Below, in pieces: positions 21,699 through 58,619 of a stretch of DNA of 64,000 nucleotides. Where the stretch lies: positions 1,622 to 65,621 of the forward strand of contig JACQRA010000088.1 in NCBI GenBank assembly GCA_016206725.1, given 5' to 3'. A program made the translations under genes and the position numbers. The notes under the pieces are model-generated. The model made no database searches, was not told where the DNA came from, and worked only from the letters and a program-made list of their open reading frames with translations. The first letter of the stretch is position 1. The number at the start of each line of letters is the position of its first letter. This DNA is from Candidatus Omnitrophota bacterium (lineage in GTDB: Bacteria > Omnitrophota > Gorgyraeia > Aquiviventales > Aquiviventaceae).

Positions 21699-21702
21699 AC
21701 GG

Positions 21703-22383
21703 TTACCTCCTCACGGGCTGTTGAACGTCACAGGGTTCGCGTAACGCGGCAATCGCCTGCCCAAACGCCTCGCAGGAAAAAATCGGATAGCCCGCCACCA
21801 GCGCCGTCGCGCCGGACTCCACGAGTTGCGGCCGCGTTTGCAGGGAAACGGCTCCGTCCACTTGAATCACCACGTCGCGCCCCTGTTGTTGGATCGCCTC
21901 AGCCAATTCCTTTAGGTTCCGGACGCCGCCGGCTTCCAAGGCGCCAGGACGGCCTGGTGCTACGGTCATCACGTTCACGACATCGCAGGCGGCCAGATGC
22001 GGCATGACGGCGCGAGCCGGGGTGGCCGGCGCGATGGCCAGGCCGGCCTGCCGCCTCTGCGCTCGAATCCGCTCCAACGTCACGGTCGGCTCCGCGCTGG
22101 TTTCAATGTGGATCAGCACGCCATCCGCGCCAGCGTCCACATACTGCGCCCAGCACGCCTCCGGCTCCTGGACGAGCAGGTGCACCTCGAAGGGCAGCCG
22201 CGTAGAACGGCGCAAGCCGCGAATGAACGACGGGCCCATGCACAACTCCGGGACAAACCGCCCGTCCATGACATCAAAATGCAGTGCGTCAATTCCTCCG
22301 GCTTCCAGCCGATGAATCTGATCCGCTAAATGACCCATGTCGGCGGAGCGCATGGCGGCTTTGATCAACAGGCGTGCCATCAC
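21703..22383 (-). CDS. rpe: ribulose-phosphate 3-epimerase family protein
   Basis: HFDVMDGRFVP signature in a 226-aa TIM barrel. Confidence 0.75.
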   Translation of the reverse strand: MMARLLIKAAMRSADMGHLADQIHRLEAGGIDALHFDVMDGRFVPELCMGPSFIRGLRRSTRLPFEVHLLVQEPEACWAQYVDAGADGVLIHIETSAEPTVTLERIRAQRRQAGLAIAPATPARAVMPHLAACDVVNVMTVAPGRPGALEAGGVRNLKELAEAIQQQGRDVVIQVDGAVSLQTRPQLVESGATALVAGYPIFSCEAFGQAIAALREPCDVQQPVRR

Positions 22384-25959: not shown

Positions 25960-25977
25960 CTCCCAGCTCTCCTCATC

Positions 25978-28312: not shown

Positions 28313-28950
28313 ACTCCCGATGGTTTCGCCGGGTACTCGGCCTTCCCGATGATCACATCCACCAGCGCCAAGAGCCAGAAGTGATGCGCCATCTCCACGA
28401 GGTTGTAGGCACGACTATCCACCCAGAAATTCTCATCACCCAGTTGGCGCAACGGGTTGTCCGCAGACAAGCCGGAGAACGTGACGACCGCGGCGAATGT
28501 CATGCGCCTGGCTGCCTCGCAGGCGTTGAGGATGTTCGGGGACTTTCCGCTGGACGAAATCGCGATCAGGACATCGCCGGCGTCGCCGTACTGTTCGACG
28601 GCTTTGGCCATCCACTGCTCGTAGCCGTAATCGTTGGCGAAGCACGTAATGAGATCGGCCTCATTGAAATTGATGGCGCGCACGCCGGCGTTCTTCGTCA
28701 AGTCCACCGCGACGTGGCTCGCCATCGCCGCACTGCCGCCGTTACCGATCAGGATGGTCTTGCGGCCGTGGCGAGCAGCCGTGACGACGAGATCCCGCAG
28801 CCGGATCAACCGGGGAATCCACGACCCATCACCCTGGCAGAGTCGTTGAAACTGCTCGGTATACTGCCGGAGGAACACTTCGGCCTCTTTCGAGCGGTCG
28901 CTCGTTCCTGCACGGGACATTCGGGTTGATCGGCTAACTGACACGGGCAT
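28309..28950 (-). CDS. gmhA: sedoheptulose-7-phosphate isomerase (SIS domain)
   Basis: ILIGNGGSAA and ISSSGKS motifs. Confidence 0.8.
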   Translation of the reverse strand: MPVSVSRSTRMSRAGTSDRSKEAEVFLRQYTEQFQRLCQGDGSWIPRLIRLRDLVVTAARHGRKTILIGNGGSAAMASHVAVDLTKNAGVRAINFNEADLITCFANDYGYEQWMAKAVEQYGDAGDVLIAISSSGKSPNILNACEAARRMTFAAVVTFSGLSADNPLRQLGDENFWVDSRAYNLVEMAHHFWLLALVDVIIGKAEYPAKPSGV

Positions 28951-31495
28951 AGTCGGGTCTCCTCTCAGCTTCTGTGTAGAGTCTGGCGTAGAAGGCGCCC
29001 TGCTGCATCAGGGTCTCATGCGTCCCGTGCTCCACCACGCGGCCGCCGTCAAGGACCATGACGTGATCGGCGTCTCTCACCGTGCTGAGCCGATGAGCGA
29101 TCACGATCACGATGGCGTCCTGATGCAGCGTCTTGATGGCCTCGTACACCGCCCGTTCCGTCAAGTTGTCCAGCGCGCTGGTGGCTTCATCAAAGATCAG
29201 CACGTCGGGCCGTCTCAGAATCGCTCGGGCGATCGCCAATCGTTGACACTGTCCGCCCGAGAGCCGCACGCCACGGTCTCCCACCATGGTGTCGTAGCCC
29301 TCAGGCAGCGAACCGATGAAGCCATCCAGTTGGGCGATACGGGTTGCCCACTCCACGTCAGATCGAGGAACCGTTTCATCACCGAGGGCGATGTTGTCTC
29401 GAATCGAAGCGCTGAAGACAAACACGTCCTGAGGGACATAACCGATCCGCTCTCGCCAGGCGCGCAGGTCCACCTCGCGCAGATCCACACCGTTGATGAG
29501 GACCGCCCCGTCGCCTGGCTCGTAGAGTCCCAACAGGAGGTTGGCCAACGTGCTCTTGCCGGAGCCTGTTGGTCCCACGAGCGCGGTGACGCTGCCCCGA
29601 GTCATGGAGGCGCTGATCCCCCGTAACACGTCCTGATCCGGACGCGCCGCGTACGTGAAGCTCGCCTCCCGCAGCTCGATCCGGTCGACTCGCTCCACGG
29701 CTCGACCTCCCCGACGCTCTTGGGGCAGATGCGTGAGGACCTCCTCCATCACCTCTAATTTCCGTTTGTGTTGGTTCAGCTCCACGCTGGCCTGATTCAC
29801 CATCGCCAACGACGGCGCGATGCGCCGGATACCCATCAGGAACGCCGCCAGCATCGAAAACCGCAGCCCAACCGAGGGGAACAGGAAGGTCGCAGCGCCA
29901 AGCCCCAGGACAATCACCACGGCGATGACTTCGTTCACCAGCATAGGCCCATGGCGGAAGACGACAAGTTGGAGCTCGGGTCGCCACTCAGCCATCGACA
30001 ACGCGTCCTGCCGCTGGACCATCTGCGGTTCCAGACGGTGGGCTTTGACGACCTTCACTCCATCAATCCCCTCAAGCTGGAGCTTTGATTGTTCGCTGCG
30101 AAGGCCGTAGAGCGTCCGCCCATGAGCCGCCGAGCGTCTGTCGGCGAAGACTCGCCACCCCTCCACGCCGATGAACGCGAAGAGCCCGATGATCAGTGTC
30201 ACCCACCATGAGAGGCACAATAACAGCGCCACCATGAGCGCACTACTGAGGATGCCCATCAGGAAGTGGCTCAACTGGGTGATGACGGCGGCCAACGACT
30301 CCGACGGTTGTTCGATATCGTTGAGGATGGCTCCCCGCGAGCGGCGTGTCATCTCCTCGTACCGCGCGTTCAGGAACCGTTCGAAGAGCGAGACCTTGAC
30401 ACGTCGGCGAAGCTTCACCGCGATGGCGGAGGTCCAGTACCAACTCAACAGAAAACATAGCCCGCGGATCACGAAGAAGAGACTGGCAACCGCCAACAGC
30501 GTGAACACCACCACGCTCATCGTGGTCGGCATGCCCAGCGCATGCAGCATGGCGGTAACCGCCGACACCACAGGACTCGCCTGTCCCCGTTCTGGTGCCG
30601 TCAGGACATCAAGCAGGGGCACCGTCAGACCGACCGTCGCAACGTCCAAGAGCGCTGCGCCAAGGATCAGCACCAGGAGTGTGGCTGACTCTCGCGGGTA
30701 GGGCTTCACCGCGATACGCCACGAAAAGGCCAGGGTGCCCAATGGTTTCGTGCCACCGAGGTTGGGAGAGAGTCGTCCTCGGATGATGCGCCAGCCGCTT
30801 CCGGCGATCAGCACAACGTTCTTCCACGTCAGCGCCTTCGAATGGCTTCGGGAACGGGCCTTGTTGGGAATCTGCACTTCCACGACCGATTTCCCTTCCC
30901 GGAGGAGTTGACACAGCAGCTCCGCCTGGTATCCGAATCCCGATGACCGGAATCCTCTGCGGCGCACATTGGCCGTCTTGTGGAGCACGGGACCGTTGTA
31001 GTACTGGAGCCTCGTGCCACTGAACCCTCTCACCAGGCGCACGAAGACTCGGCTGAGGGCACGCCGAAACGGACCACGCGCGTCCAACACTCCGAAGTAG
31101 GGGACGATCATCTCGGCTCGCCCCAGATGATCGAGTAGAATCCGCAGGGCTTCCGGTGGTTCCGCCCCATCTCCGCAGACCATCATGTAGTACTCCCCGA
31201 TGGCTTCATCGGCCGCCCGGAAGTAGCCGGCGCCGAGGCCGCAGCAAACCGGGTTGCGGAGCACGCAAATGCGACACGCCGGATAGCGACGGCATCGATC
31301 GAGCGCCTCCTCGACCGATCCATCCATCGAGGCATCATCCACCACCAGGATTTCGTAGGGGTTGTGTCGCCCGTCCATCACGTCAACGATCGTATCAATC
31401 GTGCGACCCACATTGCCCTCTTCGTTGCGGCAGGGCACGAAGAACGTGAGTGACGGCTCGGCTGACATCGCGTTATCCTTCCAAGGCTCCACCAA
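28934..31495 (-). CDS. fusion protein: GT2 polyprenyl-phosphate glycosyltransferase-like domain + ABC exporter (transmembrane domain + nucleotide-binding domain)
   Basis: 853 aa. N-terminal FFVPCRNEEGNV...VVDDASMDGS (DPM1/GtrB-like GT2). The middle is a 6-TM exporter domain. The C-terminus has Walker A GPTGSGKST, the LSGGQCQR signature and Walker B ILIFDEATSALD. Ends in TAG. Confidence 0.75.
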   Translation of the reverse strand: MVEPWKDNAMSAEPSLTFFVPCRNEEGNVGRTIDTIVDVMDGRHNPYEILVVDDASMDGSVEEALDRCRRYPACRICVLRNPVCCGLGAGYFRAADEAIGEYYMMVCGDGAEPPEALRILLDHLGRAEMIVPYFGVLDARGPFRRALSRVFVRLVRGFSGTRLQYYNGPVLHKTANVRRRGFRSSGFGYQAELLCQLLREGKSVVEVQIPNKARSRSHSKALTWKNVVLIAGSGWRIIRGRLSPNLGGTKPLGTLAFSWRIAVKPYPRESATLLVLILGAALLDVATVGLTVPLLDVLTAPERGQASPVVSAVTAMLHALGMPTTMSVVVFTLLAVASLFFVIRGLCFLLSWYWTSAIAVKLRRRVKVSLFERFLNARYEEMTRRSRGAILNDIEQPSESLAAVITQLSHFLMGILSSALMVALLLCLSWWVTLIIGLFAFIGVEGWRVFADRRSAAHGRTLYGLRSEQSKLQLEGIDGVKVVKAHRLEPQMVQRQDALSMAEWRPELQLVVFRHGPMLVNEVIAVVIVLGLGAATFLFPSVGLRFSMLAAFLMGIRRIAPSLAMVNQASVELNQHKRKLEVMEEVLTHLPQERRGGRAVERVDRIELREASFTYAARPDQDVLRGISASMTRGSVTALVGPTGSGKSTLANLLLGLYEPGDGAVLINGVDLREVDLRAWRERIGYVPQDVFVFSASIRDNIALGDETVPRSDVEWATRIAQLDGFIGSLPEGYDTMVGDRGVRLSGGQCQRLAIARAILRRPDVLIFDEATSALDNLTERAVYEAIKTLHQDAIVIVIAHRLSTVRDADHVMVLDGGRVVEHGTHETLMQQGAFYARLYTEAERRPDYARVS

Positions 31496-38977: not shown

Positions 38978-39978
38978 GAGATCATGGCCGCGGGTGAGAG
39001 ATGCTCAAACCACGTCCGCGTCGCCTGCTCAATCGTTTCCGGCGTCCAGACGGGCGCGTCGCGCCAATCCTCTAGATGCTCTAACAGACATCGCACACCG
39101 GTCTCAAAATTGACGCGAGGCTCCCAGCCCAACGTTCGGCGGATCTTTGTGGTGTCAGCGAACGTGCAGTCCGGCTCTGCCGGCCGTTTGGGAATGTGGA
39201 CGATCGGACCGCCGAGCAACTCCACGAGCCGGTTGACCGTCGAGGTGGAGCCGGAGCCGACGTTGAACACCTCGCCGGTGACCTCGGACGTCGCGGCCCG
39301 CAGGAAGGCTTCGACGACATCCGTCACGTAGGTAAAATCCCGCGTCTGCGAGCCGTCCCCTACGACGGTGAACGGCTGGCCCGCCAGCTTCTGCGCCAGA
39401 AACACGCCGAAGACGGCGCCGTAGGCGCCGGAGGTCCGGGCCCGTGGGCCGTACACATTAAAGAGGCGCAACGACACCACCGGCAACCGATATACCTGCG
39501 CCCAGTGGAGGACGAGCTGTTCGCCCAACCATTTCGTCAACGCGTACGGATATTGCGGCCGGATCGGCGCGTCTTCAGGCGTGGGGTGCACGTCTGGAAT
39601 CCCATAGCAGGATGAGGAAGCGGCGTAGAGCAACCGCTTGACGCCGACGGCACGGGCGGCCTCCAACATGGAGAGCGTCCCTTCCACGTTCGCCCGGTAG
39701 TACGCCCACGGCCGCTCAATCGAAGGGACGATATCCGCCAGGGCGGCCAGATGAAACACCCACTCGGTTCCCGCCATCAGCCGACGAACTTCCGGCTGGT
39801 TGGTCACGTCCACCTGATGGATCACCAGGCGCGTCTGGTCTGTGACGGACGCCAGATTGCTGAGGCGGCCGGTGGACAGGTTATCCAGCGCCACAACCTG
39901 ATGGCCATCGGCGAGTAGCCGCTCGACCAGATGACTCCCGATAAACCCTGCCCCTCCCGTCACCAGCGTGCGCATCAT
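38974..39978 (-). CDS. NAD-dependent epimerase/dehydratase (UDP-glucose 4-epimerase/UXS-like)
   Basis: [16 protein letters not shown] start and YALTK catalytic motif. Confidence 0.75.
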   Translation of the reverse strand: MMRTLVTGGAGFIGSHLVERLLADGHQVVALDNLSTGRLSNLASVTDQTRLVIHQVDVTNQPEVRRLMAGTEWVFHLAALADIVPSIERPWAYYRANVEGTLSMLEAARAVGVKRLLYAASSSCYGIPDVHPTPEDAPIRPQYPYALTKWLGEQLVLHWAQVYRLPVVSLRLFNVYGPRARTSGAYGAVFGVFLAQKLAGQPFTVVGDGSQTRDFTYVTDVVEAFLRAATSEVTGEVFNVGSGSTSTVNRLVELLGGPIVHIPKRPAEPDCTFADTTKIRRTLGWEPRVNFETGVRCLLEHLEDWRDAPVWTPETIEQATRTWFEHLSPAAMIS

Positions 39979-41024
39979 CAGACTGTTCCGGCCAGCGCGC
40001 GCGGCCGAGCCGCGGCGGCGCGAGCCGGAAGCGTTTCCTCGGACGATTCACAAAAGATGATCCGACTGCCGCCGGTCTCGAACCGGAACGGCACGTGCAA
40101 CACGCCCCGCAGCGCGGCTTGCACGCGATCCTGCTCCTCGGGCCGCACGAATAATAAGAGGAAGCCCCCACCGCCGGCGCCGAGGAGCTTGCCGCCGATG
40201 GCACCGGCGGCTCGCGCCGTCTCGTAGAGGGTGTCGATCTGCGGCGTGGAAATCCGGCTAGTCAGACTGCGTTTCACCTGCCAGCCCTCATGGAGCAACC
40301 GCCCGAACGCTGTGAGATCGATCTCTTCCTGTAGAATCCGAATGGCTTCATCCACCATCTGTTGCATCGCGCGCAGCTCCGCGGTCTTCTTCGGCGTCGC
40401 CTGGATCTGGTCGCGGGCGATGTCCGAGGCCGTGCGCGAAAACCCCGTAAAGAAGAGCATCAGGTGTTCCTGGAGGCGCGTACGCCGCGTCTCATCGATC
40501 ATGACCGGTGAGACCTGAAAACGGTGGTCGGTCGGAAAGTCAATCCGATTGAATCCCCCAAAGGCGGCGACGATCTGATCTTGTGACCCCACAGACTCTT
40601 TGAGCACCTCTTGCTCGATGTGGATCGCCTCGCGCGCGAGCTGCATCTTGGTGGGCATCCGACCCTTGAGGCCATGAAGGGCGTGCAAGAAACCAACCGT
40701 AAAAGCGGAACTCGACCCTAGGCCCGTCCTGGCGGGCAAGTCTCCGTCGTGGTGGATTTCCAGTCCTTCCGTGATGTGGAGAGCACGCAGCACCCCCCGG
40801 ACCGCGGAGTGCTCGATCTGATCGTTCGATGCCACCGACTCGACCTTCGAGTAGACGATCCGGCTTTTGTGTTCGAAGAACGGCGGCAGATACCGGCAGG
40901 TGAGGTAGCAGTATTTATCAATGGTCGTCGCCAACACCGCGCCTCCGTGCTCCTGGAACCACACCGGATAGTCGGTGCCGCCTCCAAAAAATGAGATCCG
41001 GTACGGCGTGCGGCTGATGATCAT
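39978..41024 (-). CDS. GHMP kinase, second HddA-like heptose-7-phosphate kinase paralog
   Basis: RISFFGGGTD, GLGSSSA and GAGGGGF motifs. Architecture is the same as 23299..24300. Confidence 0.7.
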   Translation of the reverse strand: MIISRTPYRISFFGGGTDYPVWFQEHGGAVLATTIDKYCYLTCRYLPPFFEHKSRIVYSKVESVASNDQIEHSAVRGVLRALHITEGLEIHHDGDLPARTGLGSSSAFTVGFLHALHGLKGRMPTKMQLAREAIHIEQEVLKESVGSQDQIVAAFGGFNRIDFPTDHRFQVSPVMIDETRRTRLQEHLMLFFTGFSRTASDIARDQIQATPKKTAELRAMQQMVDEAIRILQEEIDLTAFGRLLHEGWQVKRSLTSRISTPQIDTLYETARAAGAIGGKLLGAGGGGFLLLFVRPEEQDRVQAALRGVLHVPFRFETGGSRIIFCESSEETLPARAAAARPRALAGTV

Positions 41025-42538
41025 GCTGCGACGGGCGCGTGCTGCCTTGTCAGCTTATGCGACGCCATCTGTCGGATGTGCGCCACGGTTTCTTCGCCGA
41101 ACTTCTGGCGGATCATCTCCAGGTACCTGGACGAGGTGAAGTACGTCTCGAAGGCGTGATCGCGAAACCGCAACACCTCCGCCCCTGAGAGGTAGTTCGT
41201 CGGCAGCGGCAGGGTGTCCACCGCATGCTGGGAGTAGCCGGACCACCGCTGCGGCAGCGGCCAGCCATTCTGAATGGCCAGTTCATACAGCGCGCTTCCA
41301 GGGTAAGACATACAGGAATAGAAATTGGCGAACTCACAGTTGAGCTCGAGTGCCAGATCGAGTGTTTCCTGCATCGTGGCGAGGTCGTCTTCGGGCAAGC
41401 CGAACATGTAGTTGCCGATCACGTAGATGCCGGCCTCCCGCACCCGAGTGATGGTCTTGGCGATGTCCTCTTGATCGAAGCCTTTCTGCACGTGATCCCG
41501 TACCCGCGCGTTGGCCGCCTCGATCCCGAACGCCAGCCAGTGGAAACCGGCACGTTTGAGCACCTCCACCATCTCTTCCCGCACCGTATCGACTCGCGCG
41601 TAGGCCCAGATGTTCAGATCGTAGCCGCGCGCGATGATGGCTTCGCAGATTCCGAGGACATGCTTGGGGTGAAGCACAAACATCTCATCCGCGATCTTGA
41701 CGTGCCGTACCCCGTACTGATTGACCAGGGTGTCAAGCTGTGCCATCACGGATTCGATACTCCAGAATCTGTAGCTGTTCGTCGTGGCTTTCAGTCCAAG
41801 CTCCTTTTCCCCACTCTTGAACGGAATTTGGATACAGCAGAACTGACAATGGAACGGACACCCAAGGGTTGTATATAAACTCGCATACGGCTGACGCGAC
41901 GGCTCGCCGAGGGCATGCCAGTTATGCGCGCGGTATTTTTCCATCGGCAACAGATCCCACGCAACGCCAGGCATCTCGCCGGCGAGGTCTTTGAGCAGGG
42001 GTGCTGCGGGATTGTGCCGGATGGCGCCGTCTTCGCGATACCACAGGTCCCGAACCTTCTGCAGCTCGGGATGCGGGGTCTTCAACGCCTCGATCAATTC
42101 CCACATCGTGTAGAGCCCCTCGCCGCTGCAGACGAAATCCCCTGCCTCCTCGCGCAGGGTGCGCTCAGGCAGCGCGGCGACATGACCGCCAACTAAGAGC
42201 ACGGCCTGCTCGGGATGACGCCGCTTGATTGCGGTGCAGATCGCCCCGGCCGCGGTCATGTTCTGGGTCGAGGCAGAGGGCTGGTGGCCGTAGACGACCA
42301 CGGCGATCAGGCGCGGTTTCATCGCGATGGCTCGCGCTGCCGCCGCGTCGGGTGTGAGTTCTTCAGCTTCGGCATCGAGAACGGCCACGGAGCAGCCTTT
42401 CCGACGGAGAAACGTCGCCATCAATCCCGCCCACACCGGCGGCTCAATCGCGGTCAACGTCGTGCCAAGCCCCTGATAGACCTGGGCGCGACTCCCCGGA
42501 TTGATCAGCACCACGTCGAGGTCCGGCGCTGCCCTCAT
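41021..42538 (-). CDS. B12-binding (cobalamin-dependent) radical SAM enzyme
   Basis: N-terminal B12-binding-like domain (VVLINPG...), then CPFHCQFC, a CxxxCxxC motif. ATGA overlap with the UbiA stop. Confidence 0.75.
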   Translation of the reverse strand: MRAAPDLDVVLINPGSRAQVYQGLGTTLTAIEPPVWAGLMATFLRRKGCSVAVLDAEAEELTPDAAAARAIAMKPRLIAVVVYGHQPSASTQNMTAAGAICTAIKRRHPEQAVLLVGGHVAALPERTLREEAGDFVCSGEGLYTMWELIEALKTPHPELQKVRDLWYREDGAIRHNPAAPLLKDLAGEMPGVAWDLLPMEKYRAHNWHALGEPSRQPYASLYTTLGCPFHCQFCCIQIPFKSGEKELGLKATTNSYRFWSIESVMAQLDTLVNQYGVRHVKIADEMFVLHPKHVLGICEAIIARGYDLNIWAYARVDTVREEMVEVLKRAGFHWLAFGIEAANARVRDHVQKGFDQEDIAKTITRVREAGIYVIGNYMFGLPEDDLATMQETLDLALELNCEFANFYSCMSYPGSALYELAIQNGWPLPQRWSGYSQHAVDTLPLPTNYLSGAEVLRFRDHAFETYFTSSRYLEMIRQKFGEETVAHIRQMASHKLTRQHAPVAA

Positions 42539-43491
42539 CTCATGCGTTCTCCGTAGAGAATCACGCCGGCGGTCGCCACCCACAACAGCAGATTCACCAT
42601 CATCGGGCGGTCCGTCAGAATGCTCTGGGTCGGGTCTCCCCCTTCTTCCTTGTGATAGACCAAATAGAGGTAACGGAAGAACCCATACAAGACAAACGGG
42701 ACGGTCAGCAGCAGCCCTGGCGAACCAAATCGCCCGACGATCTCCTCGCTCACGGTGTAGAGCGTGTAGCTGACCAGTGCGGAAGCCGTGATAATGCCGA
42801 CCATCGCATCGAGAAACGGCAGAGGGTAATCCGTCAGGACTTGCCGGTGATTCGGCGCGCCGTCCTCGAGGAGCACGAGCTCATGGCGACGTTTGCAGAG
42901 GGCGATGAACAACGCCAACAACGTCGTGCAAATCAGCACCCACGCGCTCATCGTCACTTGGAGCACGACGGCCCCGGCAAGCACCCGCAAGAGATAGCCG
43001 GCTGCGACCACGAAAACATCCAGGATGACGGCATGCTTGAGCCTCCAGGCATAGAGCAGGTTCAGTCCCCAATAGGTTGAGAGGACAAGGGCTAAGGACA
43101 CGCTCAAGGCGGCCCCACCCAACAGACTCAGCAGCAACAACCCCACAACCGCGGCTCGGGCGATCCCCACACGCAGCAGCCCCGCGGCCAGCGGGCGGCG
43201 GCGCTTTTCCGGATGGAGGCGGTCCTGTGCGCAATCGGTGAGATCATTCAAGAGGTAGATCGAACTGCTGGCGAGGCAGAAACATCCACAGGCCGCGAGG
43301 CTGCGCAGGAGTGCGTCCAGGGAAAAGACGTGCGGCGAAAAGAAGAGCGGAGCCAACACGAAGAAATTTTTCACCCACTGCGTGGGTCGCAGCTCAACCC
43401 AGAGGGCCCGCAGCGGACCTGGTGGGGGAGGCCGGTTCGGCTCGGCCTGGCTCACAGGCGTTTCCAAGACCAGCGAATCAGGAGACATCAT
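42535..43491 (-). CDS. UbiA-family prenyltransferase, decaprenyl-phosphate phosphoribosyltransferase-like
   Basis: NDLTDCAQDRLHPEKRRRPLAAG motif (NDxxDxxxDR...HP.K..RPL), about 8 TM helices, 318 aa. Confidence 0.7.
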   Translation of the reverse strand: MMSPDSLVLETPVSQAEPNRPPPPGPLRALWVELRPTQWVKNFFVLAPLFFSPHVFSLDALLRSLAACGCFCLASSSIYLLNDLTDCAQDRLHPEKRRRPLAAGLLRVGIARAAVVGLLLLSLLGGAALSVSLALVLSTYWGLNLLYAWRLKHAVILDVFVVAAGYLLRVLAGAVVLQVTMSAWVLICTTLLALFIALCKRRHELVLLEDGAPNHRQVLTDYPLPFLDAMVGIITASALVSYTLYTVSEEIVGRFGSPGLLLTVPFVLYGFFRYLYLVYHKEEGGDPTQSILTDRPMMVNLLLWVATAGVILYGERMR

Positions 43492-43494
43492 CGG

Positions 43495-44541
43495 TTAAAA
43501 GGGTCCTTTGAACCGCTGCTCATGGCTGTAGAACGATTCGCCGCTCAGATCGGCCGGCTCAAGCTTCAGCATGTGCTCCGCGGTGCGGAGGATGCTGACC
43601 GCGTTGGGATAAAACAGGTTCTCCAGCGGCCGCGTGGTGGGACAGGGGACCTGCGCAAATCCGAGCCGTTCAACCGCCCGCTCCAAGATCTCGAAGCAGC
43701 GATGGCTGATGAGCGCCGCCGCCTCCGCCGCAAACCCGCAGAAGGTCCAGTCGTAGTCGGCGACGATGCACCGGCGCGTCCGCTTCACCGAATCGACCAG
43801 CGTCGCCTCATCCAACGGCACCACGCTACGCACATCCACGACCTCCAGCTCGACACCCCGCTTGGCCATGACCTCGGCGGCCTTCATCGCCTCGACCGTC
43901 ATCCACGACGTCGCGATCACCGTCAGGTCCTTGCCGAATCGCCGCACCGTCGCCTCGCCCAACGGCAGACGGCGGCTGCGATCCACCTCGCCCTCCACGT
44001 CATACAGCCATCGATGCTCCAGGAAGATGACGGGATTGTCATCGCGAATCGCGGCGCGCAAGAGACTGTAGGCATCCTGGGGCGTGGTGGGCAGAACCAC
44101 TTTCAAACCTGGAAAATGGCTAAAGAGACCGTGGAGCGACTTGCTGTGTTGGGCCGACTGCCCCCAACCCCGCCCAATGACCGCCCGGATCACCAGCGGC
44201 AGGCGAAGCTGCCCACCGCTCATGTAGCGGAGACTCGAAAGCATGTTGCCGATCTGGTTCATCGCCAGCAGCATAAAATCCGCCCGGATATGCACATGCA
44301 CCGGCCGAAGACCGGAGACCGCAGCCCCGATCGCCACACCGGTCATGCTCTCTTCAGAGAGTGGGGTGATAAAGCACCGCCGGTCTCCAAACCGCTCTAC
44401 CAGTCCTGCGGTGGAGCCGAAGATGCGCTTGTGGTCCGAGACGTCCAGGCCGAACACGAACACCGAGGGATCCGCGTCCATCTCATCGGCTAACGCGGCC
44501 GCGAGGGCATCCCGAAAGGTGGTGCGAGTCGCTAGGCCCAT
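43495..44541 (-). CDS. thiamine-diphosphate-dependent dehydrogenase E1 component, beta subunit (transketolase C-terminal-like)
   Basis: 348 aa. VFVFGLDV ... TPLSEESMTGVAIGAA matches the E1 beta pattern. Confidence 0.75.
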   Translation of the reverse strand: MGLATRTTFRDALAAALADEMDADPSVFVFGLDVSDHKRIFGSTAGLVERFGDRRCFITPLSEESMTGVAIGAAVSGLRPVHVHIRADFMLLAMNQIGNMLSSLRYMSGGQLRLPLVIRAVIGRGWGQSAQHSKSLHGLFSHFPGLKVVLPTTPQDAYSLLRAAIRDDNPVIFLEHRWLYDVEGEVDRSRRLPLGEATVRRFGKDLTVIATSWMTVEAMKAAEVMAKRGVELEVVDVRSVVPLDEATLVDSVKRTRRCIVADYDWTFCGFAAEAAALISHRCFEILERAVERLGFAQVPCPTTRPLENLFYPNAVSILRTAEHMLKLEPADLSGESFYSHEQRFKGPF

Positions 44542-46674: not shown

Positions 46675-46675
46675 A

Positions 46676-47383: not shown

Positions 47384-47399
47384 GCGCCTCTTTCTCTGG

Positions 47400-47485
47400 G
47401 GGGATGTTCACAGCGTGAACGGAAGCTGTTCAAAACATGAACATATTGAAGATACTCTAAACGATCTGAAGTCCTTGTCAAGAGA
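47400..47485 (-). promoter_or_regulatory. candidate sigma70-like promoter (-35 TTGACA, 16-nt spacer, -10 TAGAGT on the minus strand) followed by two inverted repeats with TGTTCA/TGAACA half-sites before the regulator start codon
   Basis: On the plus strand, tgtcaa is at about 47476-47481 and actcta at about 47454-47459. IR1 gttcac-agc-gtgaac is at about 47406-47420. IR2 tgttca-aaaca-tgaaca is at about 47427-47443. An AAGAGG-like RBS lies just before the ATG at 47383. Confidence 0.45.
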
Positions 47486-47515
47486 AAATGCACGGCGTGA
47501 GGGATGATCGCGCCG

Positions 47516-50876: not shown

Positions 50877-50885
50877 CAGATCGTG

Positions 50886-51053: not shown

Positions 51054-51169
51054 CGGTGTTCCTCCTCGTTGCATTGTGCAAGAAATCTCATTGGATCAAA
51101 CCGCTTCGCGGTCTGACAAGGCGGAAACGGCGCAGGCGCTGGCGCCTAAGGGAGAAGACGCGCCAGGTC

Positions 51170-52627: not shown

Positions 52628-54430
52628 CTATTGTGATGGAGCCTTTGGGTTTGTCAATGAGAAACTTACGAGGCGGAAGAACCCATAGGCGGCCAGCATG
52701 ATGAGGAACGGCTCGAGCGGAGTTCGGTGTCGGTACGCGCACTCGAAAAAGAGGTGCACGACACTGCGCGAAGCCAGCACGACGAGCAGCAGCCACCAGT
52801 CTAATCGCTTGACCGGTTCGCGCAAGGAGCGCCAGAGCACCACACCGAACCCCACCCACGCCGCCGCGTAGGCATACCACCACATCCAGGACCAATAGAG
52901 GCTGCCCCGCATGAGGAAGATGGGATCAAAGGCGCCAAACCCATGGGAAAAGAACAGCACGCGAGCATTCCCCGCAACCGCGGCGGCCATGTTCACCATC
53001 ACGTTCAAGGGCTGAGTCCTGAAGAGCGCCCAAGCCCCCTGGGGATCGCGCCATGGATTGAGCCACACATGCATGTTCACGGGTGAGTTCATCGAGACAA
53101 ACCACTGCATGTTGAGGCGTCCCGCCCCTTGGAAGTGAAGCGACCCGTCGTGGACGCTCAGCGCAAATGGGGCCAGGATGACGAGGAACCCGAGCGACAA
53201 TCCCAGGCCATGGATCACGGCGGTACGCCAGCCCAGCTTGGCCCGGATGCCAAGCAGGAACCAGCCGATGAGGAAGAACCAGAACATGATATTGCTTTCA
53301 CGCGTTACAGCCGCCCACCCCAACAAGCCGCCAATTCCAACGATCCATCTGCCCCACCGATGAGGATCCTCCACATATCTGAGGAGGCACCAGACGACCA
53401 ACAGCGTCCAGAAGGGATCCACGGCTTGGTGTCCGATCGCAGCCGCGGAAAAGATCATGAGAAAATCCAATGCCCCGAACACCGCGGCAATCCGCGCCAC
53501 CATCCGACCAAATAGCCGTTTGGCCACGTCGTACAGGAGGAGACACGTGAGCGCCCCGATCACCGATTGCACGGCACAGACCAGAAAATAGGACCTCCCG
53601 CCCAGCCAGTAGATCAGCGCGAGGAACCGAACGTAGCCCGGCGCAAAGAGGGGGATGTCCGACCAGGGCGTCTTTCCACCGTGCAGCAACGACATCGCCA
53701 GCGCATCATACGCCGGTCCGTCTGAGCCGGTCTCCCAATAATTCGGATCCGACATCACGCGGGTCGTGTAAAACAGCCGGAACGCCAGCGCGACAAGGAA
53801 CACGACCGCAAGGAACACCGGCTCGCTCGCGAGGGCGGTTCGGATGCGGGCACTCCACGCCTTGACGATCCGGGTCGAGGCCATCACGCTTCCCGCCACA
53901 CCCAGGAGGGTTGCACAAACGGTGAACCAGCGAGCGACCACCAGCGAAACAGCCCACAGCGCCGCGTATCCTAAGATAAGCGGGAGGAAGAAGAGCGAGG
54001 GATCCTCTGTACCCCTGCGGCGCCACCGCGCGAGAAGCTGCGCGCCCGCCACCATCCCCGCGACCAGCACGCCACCCCACAACGCGAAGCAGTACCGCAC
54101 GTACCAGGGAGAGAAGGTCGCAACACCCGGCTCGTGCGTCAAGTGCCAGACGAAGCTTGCGAAGAGGCCGAACAGATGGAGGGAGAGCCCGAGTCGTATC
54201 GCCCAACGCCAGCGCGCGCGGAGGGAACGGTCGAAGAAGACGCTGAAGGACCAGGCATAGAGCGCGACGCTCGCCCAGTACAAGAGTGGGACCGGAACCA
54301 CCACCCCTTCCATGAGCGGAACCGAAAGGCGAACCAGTCCGCCGTCCCACCAGATGATTTCAGCAACGAGGGCCGCGCAGAGCCCGCCCCCCAACAACAT
54401 CACGAGGAACCCGCGTGCGTTGGTGGACAT
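52628..54430 (-). CDS. GT-C superfamily glycosyltransferase (ArnT/PMT_2-like) with N-terminal multi-TM extension
   Basis: PMT_2-like segment GSDGPAYDALAMSLLHGG after 5-6 extra helices. About 600 aa with at least 14 helices. Confidence 0.55.
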   Translation of the reverse strand: MSTNARGFLVMLLGGGLCAALVAEIIWWDGGLVRLSVPLMEGVVVPVPLLYWASVALYAWSFSVFFDRSLRARWRWAIRLGLSLHLFGLFASFVWHLTHEPGVATFSPWYVRYCFALWGGVLVAGMVAGAQLLARWRRRGTEDPSLFFLPLILGYAALWAVSLVVARWFTVCATLLGVAGSVMASTRIVKAWSARIRTALASEPVFLAVVFLVALAFRLFYTTRVMSDPNYWETGSDGPAYDALAMSLLHGGKTPWSDIPLFAPGYVRFLALIYWLGGRSYFLVCAVQSVIGALTCLLLYDVAKRLFGRMVARIAAVFGALDFLMIFSAAAIGHQAVDPFWTLLVVWCLLRYVEDPHRWGRWIVGIGGLLGWAAVTRESNIMFWFFLIGWFLLGIRAKLGWRTAVIHGLGLSLGFLVILAPFALSVHDGSLHFQGAGRLNMQWFVSMNSPVNMHVWLNPWRDPQGAWALFRTQPLNVMVNMAAAVAGNARVLFFSHGFGAFDPIFLMRGSLYWSWMWWYAYAAAWVGFGVVLWRSLREPVKRLDWWLLLVVLASRSVVHLFFECAYRHRTPLEPFLIMLAAYGFFRLVSFSLTNPKAPSQ

Positions 54431-54431
54431 G

Positions 54432-55385
54432 TCACCCGCGCGAAGGAGAGAGCCCTGCATATCGGCTGAGCCACGCGATCGTCTTTGACAACCCTTCCTC
54501 AAGATCAATCGCCGGCTGCCACTTCAGGAGGGTCTTGGCTTTCGTCACATCCGGTTGACGCTGCTTGGGATCATCCTGGGGTAACGGGCGGAACTCGATC
54601 CGGCTGGCCGTCTCCTTACAATACGTCAGCACCCGCTTGGCGATCTCCAGGATGGCGCACTCATCCGGATTGCCGAGATTCACCGGCTCATGGAGGTCGC
54701 TGTCCATCAGTCGGCGGATGCCTTCGATCAGATCATCAATGTAACAGAAGCTCCGCGTCTGGCTCCCATCACCATACACCGTCAGCGGCTCGCCCCGCAA
54801 GGCTTGAGCGATGAAGGTGGGAATCGCCCGCCCGTCATCGAGCCGCATCCGCGGTCCATACGAGTTGAAGATGCGCACGATCCTCGTGTCCACTCCATGC
54901 TCACGGTGGTACGCCATGGTCAAGGCTTCCGCGAACCGCTTGGCTTCGTCGTAGACCCCTCGAGGCCCGACCGGATTGACATGGCCCCAGTAGCCCTCCG
55001 GTTGGGGATGCACCTGCGGGTCGCCGTACACTTCCGATGTGGAGGCCAAGAGGAACTTGGCGCCTTTCGCTTTCGCAATGCCCAGGGCATTCAAGGTGCC
55101 GAGCGAACCCACCTTCAGGGTCTGGATAGGATATTTCAGGTAATCCGGGGGGCTGGCGGGTGAGGCAAAGTGCAGGATATGGTCGAGAGGTCCCTCGACG
55201 TCAAGCGGCTGGCTGATGTTGTGCTCGAGGAATTGGAAACGCCCGTGTGACTGCAGGTGCGACACGTTGACGCGCGTTCCGGTGATGAGGTTGTCCACAC
55301 AGATGACGTGGTGCCCTTCTGCGACGAGCCGCTCGCAGAGATGCGATCCGATAAAGCCGGCTCCTCCGGTGATGAGGACGTTCAT
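54432..55385 (-). CDS. uxs: UDP-glucuronate decarboxylase (UDP-xylose synthase family)
   Basis: From the internal Met: [15 protein letters not shown], plus YDEAKR catalytic motif and UXS-like length. ATGA overlap with the upstream gene. Confidence 0.8.
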
Positions 55386-56314
55386 ACGTTGGCGTACGTG
55401 TTGCGACGGATCACGTGATAGCCTTTGATCAGTTCGGCGATGCCGTCTTGGAGGGAAACCTTCGGCCGAAAGCCGGTACGCTCGATCTTTTCGTTGCTCA
55501 CGATGTAGTTGCGCTTGTCGGGGTCTTCCCCGATCGCCGCTTCGACGTAGTAGAACGCCGGGAGCTGTTTTTTGATCTCCGCGCACAGCTCCAGCTTGGA
55601 GAGATTGGCATCGCTTAATCCGACGTTGTAGGGCTGCCCGTTCATCTGATCGAAATGCCCGAGGGCATGGAGCAATGCCCTGGCGATATCCCGCACGTGG
55701 ATGTAATTGCGCTTGAAATGTCCTTGGAAGACCACGAGGAATCGATCGGTGAGGGCGCGGTAGACGAAGTCATTGACCAGCAAATCCAGCCGCATGCGGG
55801 GACTGATTCCAAAGGCGGTGGCGAGACGCAGCGTGACACTATGGCCGGCTTCGAGCACGGCCTCTTCCGCCTCGACCTTGAGCTGTCCATAGAGCGAGAC
55901 GGGACGCAGGGGGGTCTGCTCCGTACAATGGAGACCCTCTTGGCCGATGCCATAGCCGCTGTTTGTCGTCGGAAAAATGAGGACTTGTGAACGACTGCGC
56001 AATTCCAGCAGCAATCGAATGGCCTCCAGATTGATCCCGCGAGCCTCGGAGGGCGTGCGATCGCACGCCGGCGCACCGGTCAGGCAGGCCAGCGGCATGA
56101 TCACATCAACCCGTTTCAGTCGATCCGCCACGACGCGGCGATCTCGCACATCAGCTCGAATGATCGTCAGACCGGCCTGATGACAACAGTCAAGCAGCGA
56201 GGTCTGCCCATACATGAAATTGTCGATCACGGCGACGTGATGGCCCTCTTGCAGCAAGAGAGGGACTAAGACCGAACCGATATACCCCGCTCCCCCCGTC
56301 ACCAGAACGTTCAT
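55382..56314 (-). CDS. NAD-dependent epimerase/dehydratase
   Basis: Internal start [18 protein letters not shown] overlap with the upstream gene. Confidence 0.75.
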
Positions 56315-57255
56315 GAGGTGGCGTCTCCTGCGCCGCTCAGTTCGTGTTCGAGGAACCAGCGATAGGTCTGTTCGATTCCACCGCGTAGATTGGTCCTCGG
56401 CCGCCACCCCATCGCCTGGATCAGCGACGAGTCAAGCCGTTTCTCCGGCGCCCCGTCCGGACGAGAGGCATCCCAGCGGACGGTCCCGCGGAAGCCGACG
56501 ACCTCTGCGATGAGATCCGCCAGCTCGCGGATCGTCCACGACGCCCCCGATCCCACGTTGATGGGGCTGGCCGCCTCATCGTGGTCGAGCAGCAGTGCAC
56601 AGGCTTCCGCCAAGTCATCCGTGAATAAGAACTCGCGTCGCGCCTGCCCGCTGCCCCACAACGTCACCTCGCCACGGCCCTGCTCGGCCGCCTCGTACAA
56701 CTTCCGCAGGAGCGCGGAGAGCACATGGGCATCCTCCGGATCAAACGAATCGCCCGGCCCATAGACCGTCGCGGGGATGACGGTGACGTACCGCGTGCCA
56801 TACTGACGGTTGTACGAGTCGCACAGCGACAATCCCGCCCACTTGGCCATGGCGTAAGGCTCGCTGGTGGGCTCCATCGGTCCGGTCATGAGATGCTCAG
56901 CGCGCATGGGTTGTGGGCAGCGTTTCGGATACATGCAGCTGCTGCCGAAATTCAACAACCGCTTGACCCCGGCCTTCCACGCCCCATGGATCAGATTCAT
57001 TTCCATGATGAGATTCTCGTAGATGAACTCCGCCGGGTAGCGGCGGTTCGCTTCGATGCCGCCGACCCGTCCGGCGGCGATGATCACGACATCGGGATGA
57101 ACCCGCGGCAACCACGTCTCGACCGCCTCCTGGCGGGTCAGATCCACCTCGGCGCGGGTCGCGGTGACCACGGACCACGTCGGCTCTTTGGAGAACCGAC
57201 GCATCAAGGCCGAGCCGACTAAGCCGGTATGTCCTGCGACGTAGAGACGTGGCAT
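56311..57255 (-). CDS. fcl: GDP-L-fucose synthase family 3,5-epimerase/4-reductase (Fcl/WcaG-like)
   Basis: MPRLYVAGHTGLVGSAL start and YAMAK catalytic motif. Length is about 314 aa. Confidence 0.75.
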   Translation of the reverse strand: MPRLYVAGHTGLVGSALMRRFSKEPTWSVVTATRAEVDLTRQEAVETWLPRVHPDVVIIAAGRVGGIEANRRYPAEFIYENLIMEMNLIHGAWKAGVKRLLNFGSSCMYPKRCPQPMRAEHLMTGPMEPTSEPYAMAKWAGLSLCDSYNRQYGTRYVTVIPATVYGPGDSFDPEDAHVLSALLRKLYEAAEQGRGEVTLWGSGQARREFLFTDDLAEACALLLDHDEAASPINVGSGASWTIRELADLIAEVVGFRGTVRWDASRPDGAPEKRLDSSLIQAMGWRPRTNLRGGIEQTYRWFLEHELSGAGDATS

Positions 57256-58619
57256 TGTTGTGCAATCACGGAGGCGGCATCGCGCAAATCGTCCGCCACG
57301 ACATCCGGCGTCAGCGAAGGATCGCCGGCCGCCCGCGCGCCGTAGCCGGTACGCACCAGGACGGTCGTCGCGCCCACCGCTCGACCGAGATCAATGTCGC
57401 ATGCCTTATCGCCGATCACGAAACAGTCCTGCAATTCGAAGCGCAGCTCACGAGCGGCACGCTTCAGCAGGCCAGCCTTCGGTTTGCGACACGCGCACGC
57501 CTCTTGGGGACGATGGGGACAGACATACACGCCGTCAAGGCGGACGCCCTCCGCCTGGAGGAGTTCGCGCATCCGCTGGTGAACCGCTTCCAATCGAGCC
57601 ACGTCGAACATCCCGCGCCCAATCGCGGATTGGTTCGTGATCACCACGAGGCCCAGCCCCATGGCCTGCAGTCGGCGAAGTCCTTCCGCCGCGCCCTCGA
57701 CCAACTCGACCTGGTTCGGATCGGAGAGGTAATGCTTCTCGACGAGGATCGTCCCGTCCCGATCCAGCATGACAAACCGTCGCTTCCTCTTGCCCTCTCC
57801 GACCCTCTCCGGCCTTCTCCGGCCTTCTTGTCTGACAAACGTTTCTGCCATCCGATAACTCTCCGGCGTGCCGATATCCAAAAAGCGCCCGCGGCTGCAG
57901 TAGCCGTACAATCCACGGCCGGCTAATGTCGGAAACACGTCGTGCTCCATCGACACCGGGCCGTCGCTGGGGATGGCCTCGATCACCTGACGACCCAACA
58001 GATAGACGCCCGCGTTGATCCATCCCTCTCCTGCGACGGATTTCTCGTCAAATCCTTGCACGCATCCCGCTCGATCGATCCGCACGCGCCCATACCGACT
58101 GGTGTCAGCCGCCCACATCAACACGATCGACGTGACCGCCCCTCGACGATGATGCCAGCGCCAAAATGCCTGGAGGTCCGCGTCCCAGAAGGCATCACCG
58201 TTCATCGCGAGCACGACGTCGGTCTTGCACAATGGCAGGGCCTGTCGCAACGCCCCCGCGGTTCCCAACGGGGCGGCCTCTTGGGAATACCGCAGTCGCA
58301 TCGGCCCGTAGGAGTCGCCAAAGGCCTGTTGAATCTGCTCGCCGCGATAGCCGGTGCAGAGCACTACGTCCTTGATGCCCGCGGTCTTCAACCGATCGAG
58401 CTGATAACTCAAAAACGGCCGTCCCGCAACCTCCGCCAACGCCTTGGGACGACCGGGAAGCTGCGCGCGTAATCGCATCCCTAGTCCGCCGACCAAGATG
58501 GCCGCCGTCACCGAGCACAGATTCGTCTCAGTTCCTGAGTCACGTAACCACTTTGCCACTGAGTCACCTTGCCACTTAGCCACTTCTTTGGAGGGCGTTC
58601 GCGAGTTGTTGAACCACAT
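57219..58619 (-). CDS. bifunctional sugar-1-phosphate nucleotidyltransferase / GmhB-like HAD phosphatase (second copy)
   Basis: ILVGGLGMRLRAQLPGRPKAL nucleotidyltransferase motif. C-terminal MLDRDGTIL ... CRKPKAGL HAD motifs. The exact start is uncertain. Confidence 0.7.
   Translation of the reverse strand: MWFNNSRTPSKEVAKWQGDSVAKWLRDSGTETNLCSVTAAILVGGLGMRLRAQLPGRPKALAEVAGRPFLSYQLDRLKTAGIKDVVLCTGYRGEQIQQAFGDSYGPMRLRYSQEAAPLGTAGALRQALPLCKTDVVLAMNGDAFWDADLQAFWRWHHRRGAVTSIVLMWAADTSRYGRVRIDRAGCVQGFDEKSVAGEGWINAGVYLLGRQVIEAIPSDGPVSMEHDVFPTLAGRGLYGYCSRGRFLDIGTPESYRMAETFVRQEGRRRPERVGEGKRKRRFVMLDRDGTILVEKHYLSDPNQVELVEGAAEGLRRLQAMGLGLVVITNQSAIGRGMFDVARLEAVHQRMRELLQAEGVRLDGVYVCPHRPQEACACRKPKAGLLKRAARELRFELQDCFVIGDKACDIDLGRAVGATTVLVRTGYGARAAGDPSLTPDVVADDLRDAASVIAQQCHVSTSQDIPA

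Follow-up and report, generated by a model that had tools for sequence, protein, structure and literature searches.

A predicted polyprenyl-phosphate phosphoribosyltransferase in an Omnitrophota glycan locus and its candidate glycosyltransferase partner

The DNA considered here, called the window throughout, is a stretch of 64,000 nucleotides from the metagenome-assembled genome of an uncultivated Candidatus Omnitrophota bacterium (assembly GCA_016206725.1, contig JACQRA010000088.1, positions 1,622 to 65,621). At 42535..43491 its minus strand carries a gene whose product is predicted from the sequence to be a UbiA-fold polyprenyl-phosphate 5-phosphoribosyltransferase, resembling the polyprenyl-phosphate phosphoribose synthases (PPPRS) and the decaprenyl-phosphate phosphoribosyltransferases (DPPRS). 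We propose, with a probability of about 0.6, that this enzyme acts as a polyprenyl-phosphate phosphoribose synthase feeding periplasmic pentofuranosylation by a glycosyltransferase of the GT-C fold. Family membership of the UbiA protein, conservation of its catalytic and phosphoribosyl pyrophosphate (PRPP)-binding residues, the GT-C fold of the putative partner and the contigs shared by the two genes in close relatives were all computed. The reading of the full pathway is plausible: it rests on co-location, with three expected components not found, and it fits a published scheme that has been proven experimentally. A first-pass annotation made from the letters alone had already suggested that a GT-C enzyme takes a pentose from a lipid-linked donor; making such a donor is the most likely role of the gene and matches the three-component scheme described for other bacteria (PMC11127046).

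The gene starts with ATG and encodes a 318-residue protein with approximately eight hydrophobic segments, corresponding to some 8-9 transmembrane (TM) helices. It lies within a single long operon-like array on the minus strand, comprising about 57 genes with a G+C fraction of about 0.63. The match to the Pfam UbiA family (PF01040, 60.6 bits, cut-off 34.2) identifies the generic family only. Two NCBIfam equivalog models, both titled 'decaprenyl-phosphate phosphoribosyltransferase', scored above their cut-offs (NF008977, 273.9 bits against 234; NF008978, 222.3 bits against 207). The mycobacterial-type model NF008976 (160.6 bits, cut-off 474) and the HAD-fused-type model NF006088 (189 bits, cut-off 351) stayed below theirs, and models for other UbiA-type prenyltransferases gave at most 47 bits against cut-offs of 180-269 (TIGR01475, 19.1 bits, cut-off 180.8; PRK12884, 46.8 bits, cut-off 269). 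When the entire PDB was searched by sequence, the sole matches were two entries of Mycobacterium tuberculosis Rv3806c, 8j8j (E=6e-37) and 8j8k; the Rv3806c alignment spans the protein end to end (residues 22-311) at about 32% identity. The signature NDxxDxxxDR...HPxKxxRPL, on which the earlier family call was based, is indeed present as NDLTDCAQDR at residues 82-91 and HPEKRRRPL at residues 93-101.

The substrate residues of Rv3806c have been defined by cryo-electron microscopy and mutagenesis as R22, K28, Y70, N73, D77, K87, R90, Q135, Y138, K143, Y157 and K191 (PMC10994848). Eleven of these 12 distinct residues are identical in the window protein and the twelfth is changed from Gln to Asn (N144), as it is in most non-mycobacterial members; all 12 positions are invariant among 17 aligned homologs. 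In the Rv3806c structure (PMC10994848), Mg2+ is assigned to Asn73 and Asp77, which correspond to N82 and D86 of the window protein; ribose to Asn73 and Gln135 (N82 and N144); the 5'-phosphate to Lys28, Tyr70 and Tyr157 (K41, Y79 and Y166); pyrophosphate to Arg22, Lys87, Arg90, Lys143 and Tyr138 (R35, K96, R99, K152 and Y147); and the lipid phosphate to Lys28, Tyr157 and Lys191 (K41, Y166 and K200). The N-D-x-x-D-x-x-x-D motif together with the lysine/arginine cluster (N82, D83, D86, D90, R35, K96, R99 and K152) is present and invariant in the homologs. K41, Y79, K96 and K200 were not found in Escherichia coli UbiA, MenA or CyoE, and judging from the alignment it is Lys41, Tyr79, Lys96 and Lys200 that set phosphoribosyl transfer apart from prenyl transfer.

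Neighbour-joining placed the window protein well within the DPPRS clade. The DPPRS references in the tree were Rv3806c and four proteins given here with their flanking genes: a DPPRS of Tsukamurella (PAP2 and AftA), a HAD-UbiA fusion of Rhizobium (GtrA, DprE1-like and DprE2-like), a DPPRS of Lactococcus (HAD and GtrA) and one of Marivivens ('divergent PAP2'). E. coli UbiA, MenA and CyoE served as the outgroup. The window protein is 30-37% identical to the reference DPPRS proteins as against 19% to the three E. coli enzymes, and BLAST of the latter on the window gave no match at E<=1. An ordinary UbiA-superfamily prenyltransferase, acting on a quinone, heme O or some other aromatic or lipid acceptor and lying by chance in a glycan operon, would agree with the generic Pfam match and with the automatic JGI names of many homologs ('4-hydroxybenzoate polyprenyltransferase'). 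This explanation has almost nothing left to recommend it in view of the poor scores with NCBIfam models other than DPPRS, the low identity to the E. coli enzymes and the presence of the phosphoribose and 5'-phosphate residues that distinguish Rv3806c (PMC10994848). The DPPR-synthase family call of the first-pass annotation is thus borne out both by the two NCBIfam cut-offs and by the phylogeny it had proposed, where the quinone and heme-O prenyltransferases lie apart from the group that the protein forms with the DPPR synthases. We consider it highly probable that the protein is a PRPP-dependent polyprenyl-phosphate phosphoribosyltransferase.

Such an enzyme outside the mycobacteria is less unusual than had been supposed. 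The family comprises 2,318 clusters at 50% identity (E<=1e-30), and more than 592 species-representative genomes from many phyla carry a homolog. Further homologs were found on haloarchaeal, rhizobial and lactococcal plasmids and on one phage contig, and NCBI already names this very protein 'decaprenyl-phosphate phosphoribosyltransferase'.

The prime candidate for a user of the lipid-linked pentose is the product of a minus-strand gene at 52628..54430, described in the first-pass annotation as an ArnT/PMT-like GT-C enzyme. It is PMT_2/GT39-like (PMT_2, 44.2 bits) and has approximately 12 hydrophobic segments; its N-terminal multi-TM extension places about 200 residues of additional helices before the GT-C core. 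An AlphaFold2 model computed from 37 homologs reached a predicted local distance difference test score (pLDDT) of 88.5 and a predicted TM-score (pTM) of 0.89. The top Foldseek matches of this model in the PDB were exclusively GT-C enzymes (AglB, STT3, Pmt4, PglB, ALG9, ArnT (5f15), AftB, AftD and EmbC), with a probability of 1.00 for the top 30 and modest TM-scores of 0.35-0.40; AftB, AftD and EmbC were only weak structural matches (E 0.25 to 0.68). Judged from the model, the protein has a GT-C fold. The usual place of the catalytic acid in GT-C enzymes is the loop after a TM helix, and here an invariant DGxxYD loop, with Asp237 and Asp242 invariant, follows the TM helix at about residue 226.

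Among close relatives, defined as loci whose UbiA protein is 60-75% identical to that of the window, seven cases were seen in which a GT-C homolog of 50-84% identity is encoded on the contig of the UbiA homolog. These are the window, L001, L003 and four contigs of 162,391, 180,987, 52,527 and 11,249 bases, recognised by lengths that agree between the two lists of homologs; the 180,987-base and 11,249-base contigs each have two GT-C paralogs. The GT-C gene is five genes upstream of UbiA in L001, and in L003 it lies between the gene for E1beta (described below) and a methyltransferase-UbiA pair. In L097 a different GT-C, of the GT87 type, is encoded immediately upstream of E1alpha-E1beta-UbiA. 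Three observations weigh against the proposed partnership. The two genes are 9 kb apart in the window; GT-C homologs of 46% (L098) and 38% (L099) identity reside in glycan loci with no UbiA gene within 10 kb; and BLAST revealed no sequence similarity between the window GT-C and the candidate GT-Cs beside the DPPRS genes of Lactococcus, Rhizobium, Marivivens and Tsukamurella, which themselves match no Pfam family. Since the L098 and L099 homologs have no UbiA gene nearby, the link between GT-C and UbiA is suggestive and not proven.

These same three observations favor an alternative in which the UbiA protein makes polyprenyl-P-ribose(-5-P) but the GT-C at 52628-54430 uses another donor, for example a polyprenyl-P-hexose made by a GT2 enzyme, the pentose being moved by a different transferase encoded in the window or beyond it. 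A source for such a donor is at hand in a minus-strand gene at 28934..31495 (Glycos_transf_2, ABC_membrane and ABC_tran domains), whose product joins a GT2 domain to a flippase-type ABC exporter; this GT2 domain could supply the GT-C with a different lipid-linked donor, which is a further point against our proposal. A second possible lipid-donor-dependent transferase is the polytopic membrane protein of 657 residues at 14857..16830 (minus strand, about nine hydrophobic segments, no family). This alternative is nevertheless unlikely, although it deserves to be taken seriously, as the GT-C family is always found on the UbiA contig in close relatives, UbiA and GT-C are only one gene apart in L003, the 20-kb cassettes of L001, L002 and L003 contain no GT2, and the 657-residue protein has no detectable GT-C signature. 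As a second GT-C the latter is doubtful: it matched nothing in Pfam, NCBIfam or the PDB, hhalign against a GT-C profile gave a probability of 1.9%, and its single-sequence AlphaFold2 model (pLDDT 42) was unusable.

In the pathway that we favor, ribose-5-phosphate would be transferred at the cytoplasmic face from PRPP onto a polyprenyl phosphate, probably undecaprenyl phosphate, with release of pyrophosphate, yielding polyprenyl-P-beta-D-ribofuranose-5-P. The 5-phosphate would then be lost, possibly with epimerisation, and the lipid-linked pentofuranose would be flipped over the membrane, a step for which an ABC exporter is the only candidate. In the periplasm a GT-C enzyme, the best candidate being the 52628-54430 protein, would add the pentose to a surface glycan or protein. 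The identity of the lipid, the dephosphorylation step, the flippase, any epimerisation and the acceptor are those that we infer.

Components of this pathway were sought by scanning every open reading frame (ORF) of the 64-kb window with Pfam, and many with NCBIfam. Domain scans and BLAST detected neither a PAP2/DUF212 phosphatase nor a HAD of the phosphoribose phosphatase (PRP) type in the window; no window ORF contains a MATE, SMR, EamA or GtrA flippase domain; neither DprE1 (no FAD_binding_4 or ALO protein) nor a short-chain dehydrogenase/reductase (SDR) of the DprE2 type is encoded among the window ORFs; and no epimerase identifiable as similar to ORF13 of the Citrobacter youngae system (see below) was found in the window. 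All four results count against our proposal. BLAST of the window was equally negative with the DprE1-like and DprE2-like proteins of Rhizobium, with the GtrA or EamA proteins of the reference loci and, overall, with the phosphatase, flippase and DprE components of four reference loci; among the Emb/Aft-type arabinofuranosyltransferases, Tsukamurella AftA was likewise without a match. The absence of an obvious DprE1/DprE2 pair, remarked on in the first-pass annotation, is therefore confirmed by domain scans and BLAST, and the analog of the Rv3807c phosphatase that it hoped to see in the flanks was not found within the window. The only phosphatase-type domains of the window are two GmhB-type HADs fused to nucleotidyltransferases (27020-28312 and 57219-58619), and BLAST showed no similarity between them and the PRP-type HADs of the Lactococcus and Rhizobium DPPRS loci. 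On present evidence the pathway is incomplete, as the window holds no phosphatase for it. This gap is not fatal to the pathway, because the D18A phosphatase mutant of C. youngae ORF15 still gives some ribosylation (PMC11127046).

The candidate flippase, and the sole plausible one in the window, is the MsbA/PglK/HepA-type ABC exporter of the 28934..31495 fusion (HepA family, 357 bits; MsbA, 333 bits; both under cut-off), orthologs of which, 58-61% identical, occur in the cassettes of relatives. Fusions to this type of exporter are unusual. The GT2 domain stands at the N-terminus of the window exporter; in the relative L005 (L005:17780-20942) a B12-radical SAM domain is fused to the exporter instead, giving a protein of more than 1109 residues. 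Directly upstream of the GT-C gene, on the minus strand at 54432..55586 (true start probably about 55380), lies an SDR epimerase/dehydratase gene (Epimerase PF01370, 174 bits), and a 69%-identical ortholog occupies the same position in L001. The encoded enzyme is a possible ORF13-like pentose epimerase; its best NCBIfam matches are generic and under cut-off, and it is not distinguishable from a nucleotide-sugar enzyme. Two other sets of candidates were discarded. The only small membrane ORF of the window (47516-48013, 165 residues, four TM helices) was considered as a PAP2 phosphatase or GtrA flippase, and it has no Pfam or NCBIfam match, no PAP2 motifs and no meaningful BLAST match. For an LtaS/sulfatase-like protein (48016-49671) and a weakly glycerophosphotransferase-like protein (49668-50876), considered as users of the lipid-linked sugar, no supporting evidence was obtained, and neither is kept in the cassettes of relatives.

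The immediate neighbors of UbiA belong to a sugar cassette. Immediately upstream are minus-strand genes for the beta (43495-44541) and alpha (44532-45566) subunits of a thiamine pyrophosphate-dependent E1 enzyme of the pyruvate dehydrogenase (PDH) type, which between them show the E1_dh/Transket_pyr/Transketolase_C Pfam set. Downstream, also on the minus strand, follow a B12-binding radical SAM enzyme (41021..42538; B12-binding and Radical_SAM domains), whose true start is Met16 of the listed ORF, giving 505 residues as in its homologs, and an HddA-like GHMP sugar kinase (39978..41024; GHMP_kinases_N and _C; HddA model 142.8 bits, under cut-off). Further members on the same strand are an SDR beside the GT-C gene (SDRb, 55382-56407), the Fcl-like SDRa (56311-57255; GDP-L-fucose synthase model NF047922, 416.7 bits, cut-off 500) and a nucleotidyltransferase fused to a GmhB-type HAD phosphatase (57219..58619; NTP_transferase and HAD domains), of which a second copy is present at 27020-28312. 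In five Omnitrophota-type relatives (60-75% identity) the order E1alpha-E1beta-UbiA-SDRa-SDRb-B12 radical SAM-GHMP kinase is kept, except that in L005 only SDRb lies 3' of UbiA and the SDRa ortholog is upstream of E1alpha. Genes for DegT, SIS, the ABC exporter and the NTP-transferase/HAD fusion are found near the conserved order in relatives, and in the window SDRa and SDRb have been relocated next to the GT-C gene.

The cassette extends well beyond the Omnitrophota. Homologs of the radical SAM enzyme are 67-78% identical across phyla, the best 120 matches, all at 67% or above, including cyanobacteria, Zixibacteria and Terriglobales. In a cyanobacterium (L100) and a Zixibacterium (L101) the gene set clusters, with identities to the window orthologs of 69-70% for the B12-radical SAM enzyme, 60-61% for the GHMP kinase, 53-62% for the NTP-transferase and HAD (encoded there by separate genes), 53-54% for SDRb, 47% for E1beta, 44-45% for SDRa and 42-44% for E1alpha. 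A DegT gene is present in both loci, but its orthology is doubtful because its identity is only 28-32%, and the SIS isomerase is present in L100 but not in L101. No UbiA homolog was detected by tblastn within 10 kb in either locus. Conversely, E1, SDR, radical SAM or GHMP genes of the cassette were found near UbiA in none of 69 more distant DPPRS-like loci. SIS isomerase, GHMP kinase, HAD phosphatase and nucleotidyltransferase correspond to the four activities of GDP-D-glycero-alpha-D-manno-heptose synthesis (GmhA, HddA, GmhB and HddC). These four activities, together with the SDRa score on the GDP-fucose synthase model, indicate that the product of the cassette is a tailored nucleotide sugar, probably derived from a heptose. 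From gene order and content, UbiA appears to be a clade-specific insertion into this heptose-type cassette.

This distribution bears on a rival interpretation in which the neighbors tailor the lipid-linked pentose, the radical SAM enzyme by C-methylation or rearrangement, E1alpha/beta by C2-branching and SDRa/SDRb by epimerisation. The gene order preserved in five relatives, the overlap of the UbiA stop codon with the radical SAM start codon in ATGA at 42535-42538 and the lack of any otherwise recognisable dedicated epimerase would all suit it. ATGA or 1-10 bp overlaps are found at nearly every junction of the window operon, so that the overlap says little by itself; the coupling noticed in the first-pass annotation is real. 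Moreover, the gene set occurs without UbiA in L100 and L101, it fits a nucleotide-activated heptose-type sugar, and the distant DPPRS-like loci do not share it. Tailoring of the pentose by its neighbors is accordingly very improbable. The earlier suggestion of radical SAM chemistry on the lipid-linked pentose is not supported, on the same ground, the enzyme and its flanking genes being a cassette that exists without UbiA in other phyla. For these reasons E1alpha/beta, UbiA and the radical SAM enzyme were rejected as one functional unit, and SDRa and SDRb, which lie 3' of UbiA in relatives, were rejected as lipid-pentose epimerases or substitutes for DprE1/E2 so far as the default reading goes, SDRa being GDP-fucose-synthase-like and both being present in the UbiA-less cassettes. 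Only slightly less doubtful is a broader version in which some of E1alpha/beta, the two SDRs and the B12-radical SAM enzyme would have been taken over for epimerisation, branching or C-methylation of the lipid-linked pentose, with the MsbA/PglK-type ABC exporter replacing a MATE, SMR or GtrA protein as its flippase. Were cassette tailoring to prove true, both the lipid-linked pentofuranose donor and this form of the pathway would be new.

The cassette itself, which combines GDP-heptose-type activation with PDH-type E1alpha/beta, DegT and B12-radical SAM enzymes across phyla, is the more interesting by-product of the analysis. It covers 39978-46971, 55382-58619 and 27020-28950 in the window, L100:1202-11506 and L101:2538-11539, and seems to build a heavily modified sugar by a route not yet described. 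The sugar is perhaps branched or C-methylated, and it may also be aminated. A literature search for a link between DPPRS-like and radical SAM proteins, and for a heptose/E1/B12-radical SAM cassette, yielded nothing relevant. In L096 the B12-radical SAM ortholog bears an intein (L096:12855-15599; 914 residues; Hint and Intein_splicing domains), and a single protein of 690 residues combines E1alpha with E1beta (L096:7926-9998). Another intein, with a LAGLIDADG domain, interrupts a UDP-glucose dehydrogenase of the Omnitrophica contig L098 (L098:623-3418).

More distant homologs of UbiA occur in varied settings. DprE1-like FAD oxidases, DprE2-like SDRs and SMR-type small transporters adjoin the gene in sister loci whose UbiA is 44-49% identical, a DUF212 (divergent PAP2) gene adjoins one 55%-identical homolog, and on the reference plasmids the module is canonical, its phosphatase being a PAP2 or HAD protein and its transporter GtrA or EamA. 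These settings speak for our proposal. In the 69 distant DPPRS-like loci (43-52% identity) the commonest neighbors encode DUF362 proteins (25 of 69, directly downstream), followed by SMR-like transporters (7), DprE1-like FAD oxidases (4) and DprE2-like SDRs (4). The DUF362 gene, for a protein of about 362 residues, lies directly 3' of the UbiA-type gene, at a median distance of 13 bases (for example L065:10911-12029); this conserved pair is seen in genomes labelled, among others, Bacteroidota, Acidobacteriota and Aminicenantes, and is not present in the window. At L008:5841-8972 a DPPRS-like gene (54-56% identical) adjoins a gene similar to GH127 beta-L-arabinofuranosidases and one for a 450-residue protein without a family match, on a contig that also bears integrase, RepA and transposase genes; this locus may be a mobile pentofuranose module.

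Many distant UbiA homologs stand beside the conserved DUF362 protein or amid housekeeping genes (MutL, RecO, methylmalonyl-CoA mutase), suggesting a constitutive role in some lineages. Such a role would suit a lipid-linked pentose destined for a core polymeric component of the envelope, like the mycobacterial arabinan, and not for side-chain decoration, and the two paralogous GT-Cs on the contigs of some relatives could be read in the same way. In the clade of the window protein, however, the gene belongs to a variable locus rich in sugar-nucleotide genes with a MarR_EPS-type regulator, and the window encodes a single confirmed GT-C and no Emb- or Aft-like polymerases. An envelope polymer is thus an improbable destination.

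Other genes of the window had been brought into connection with the pentose by the first-pass annotation. The Rpe-like gene at 21703..22383 is real (PF00834, 161.5 bits; TIGR01163, 173 bits, under the cut-off of 212.6). It is situated between an RmlD-like reductase and an SDR and next to a second GHMP kinase (surroundings that include 22380-24345), which is odd company for an enzyme of pentose phosphates. Its substrate may be a ketose phosphate from which an unusual sugar is made, and nothing ties it to PRPP or to a lipid-linked pentose. All three Gfo/Idh/MocA proteins were also recovered by Pfam (8580-9608, 12089-13153 and 13825-14817, the second with only 25.4 bits against a cut-off of 24). 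Their genes are 27-35 kb from UbiA amid nonulosonic-acid and sulfation genes (NeuB, 2-epimerase, CMP-transferase, ATP sulfurylase), and nothing ties these enzymes to a pentose. Window positions 9592-13153 and 16834-17679 encode ATP sulfurylase, a pyruvate kinase homolog and TylF-type methyltransferases. In L007 (L007:10987-14730) a 59%-identical UbiA homolog is followed by genes for a TylF methyltransferase, a sulfotransferase, ATP sulfurylase and APS kinase. The TylF and ATP sulfurylase genes of the two loci hint at a sulfated, methylated glycan.

Some features of the window sequence are recorded for completeness. A DegT-type aminotransferase is split at 18761-20686, one ORF (19682-20686) containing a GNAT domain and DegT positions 3-76 and the other (18761-19663) DegT positions 84-359, which points to a frameshift, an error of sequencing or a fusion that has broken up. 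The scanned ORFs are densely packed, and gaps of more than 60 bases occur only at 1-934, 21640-21702, 24346-24738, 47384-47515 and 50877-51169 and in the last 134 bases. The G+C fraction dips from about 0.63 to 0.56-0.58 at 24001-26000 and 50001-52000, covering an ORF with only a weak methyltransferase signal (24739-25959), the area of a second B12-radical SAM gene and the 293-base gap at 50877-51169. Recent acquisition of these segments, or an internal promoter region, may account for the dips.

If our proposal is correct, glycosylation with PRPP-derived lipid-linked pentofuranose extends to the Omnitrophota, an uncultivated phylum with unknown surface glycans, in a version of the system whose locus encodes neither a phosphatase nor a small flippase that can be recognised. 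This would be useful for annotation and for the choice of enzymes in glycoengineering. It leaves the concept unchanged, because the pathway type was described as widespread in 2024 and the protein already carries its name in NCBI.

The closest described parallel is that of C. youngae, in which alpha-ribofuranose and xylofuranose side chains are put on the O antigen by three components, as shown biochemically (Kelly et al., PNAS 2024, PMC11127046). In the O1/O2 systems these are ORF15 (PPPRS-PRP, a UbiA-fold, PRPP-dependent enzyme with a fused HAD phosphatase), the MATE flippase ORF14 and the GT136 GT-C ORF12, and an optional SDR epimerase, ORF13, alters the pentose; the authors call three-component systems widespread, including in glycans of unknown structure (PMC11127046). 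The window shares with this system a UbiA-fold, PRPP-dependent synthase with N-D-x-x-D-x-x-x-D and K-R-x-x-E loops (its function in the window being predicted), a GT-C in the same glycan locus, genes of the SDR epimerase type nearby and the absence of DprE1/E2. It differs in having no fused or adjacent HAD phosphoribose phosphatase and, in place of a MATE flippase, only the MsbA/PglK-type ABC exporter. The GT-C of the window resembles PMT_2/GT39 proteins and has several additional TM helices at its N-terminus, and the synthase gene sits inside a heptose-type cassette, whereas that of C. youngae is part of a compact three-gene module.

With the decaprenyl-phospho-arabinose pathway of M. tuberculosis the window has in common the fold and family of Rv3806c (8j8j) and 11 of the 12 substrate residues. 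The mycobacterial pathway further employs the PAP2 protein Rv3807c, DprE1, DprE2, the GtrA-like Rv3789 and Emb/Aft enzymes, which the window does not contain, and the lipid carrier in the window organism is presumably not decaprenyl phosphate. The pilin arabinofuranosylation cluster of Pseudomonas aeruginosa PA7/Pa5196 consists of a PPPRS, DprE1/E2 homologs, a separate phosphatase and the GT-C TfpW (PMC11127046). Compared by description, it shares with the window a PPPRS without a fused phosphatase, a GT-C partner (putative in the window) and a Gram-negative-type envelope; its DprE1/E2 homologs and separate phosphatase were not found in the window, and its acceptor is a pilin, for which the window has no gene.

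The ArnC/ArnT and GtrA/GtrB/GtrV systems follow the order of lipid-monophosphate sugar, flipping and transfer by a GT-C enzyme; there a GT2 enzyme produces the donor, starting from a nucleotide sugar. The window is predicted to follow the same logic, and ArnT (5f15) is among the structural matches of its GT-C model. In contrast to these systems, the donor in the window would be made from PRPP by a UbiA-fold enzyme and not by a GT2.

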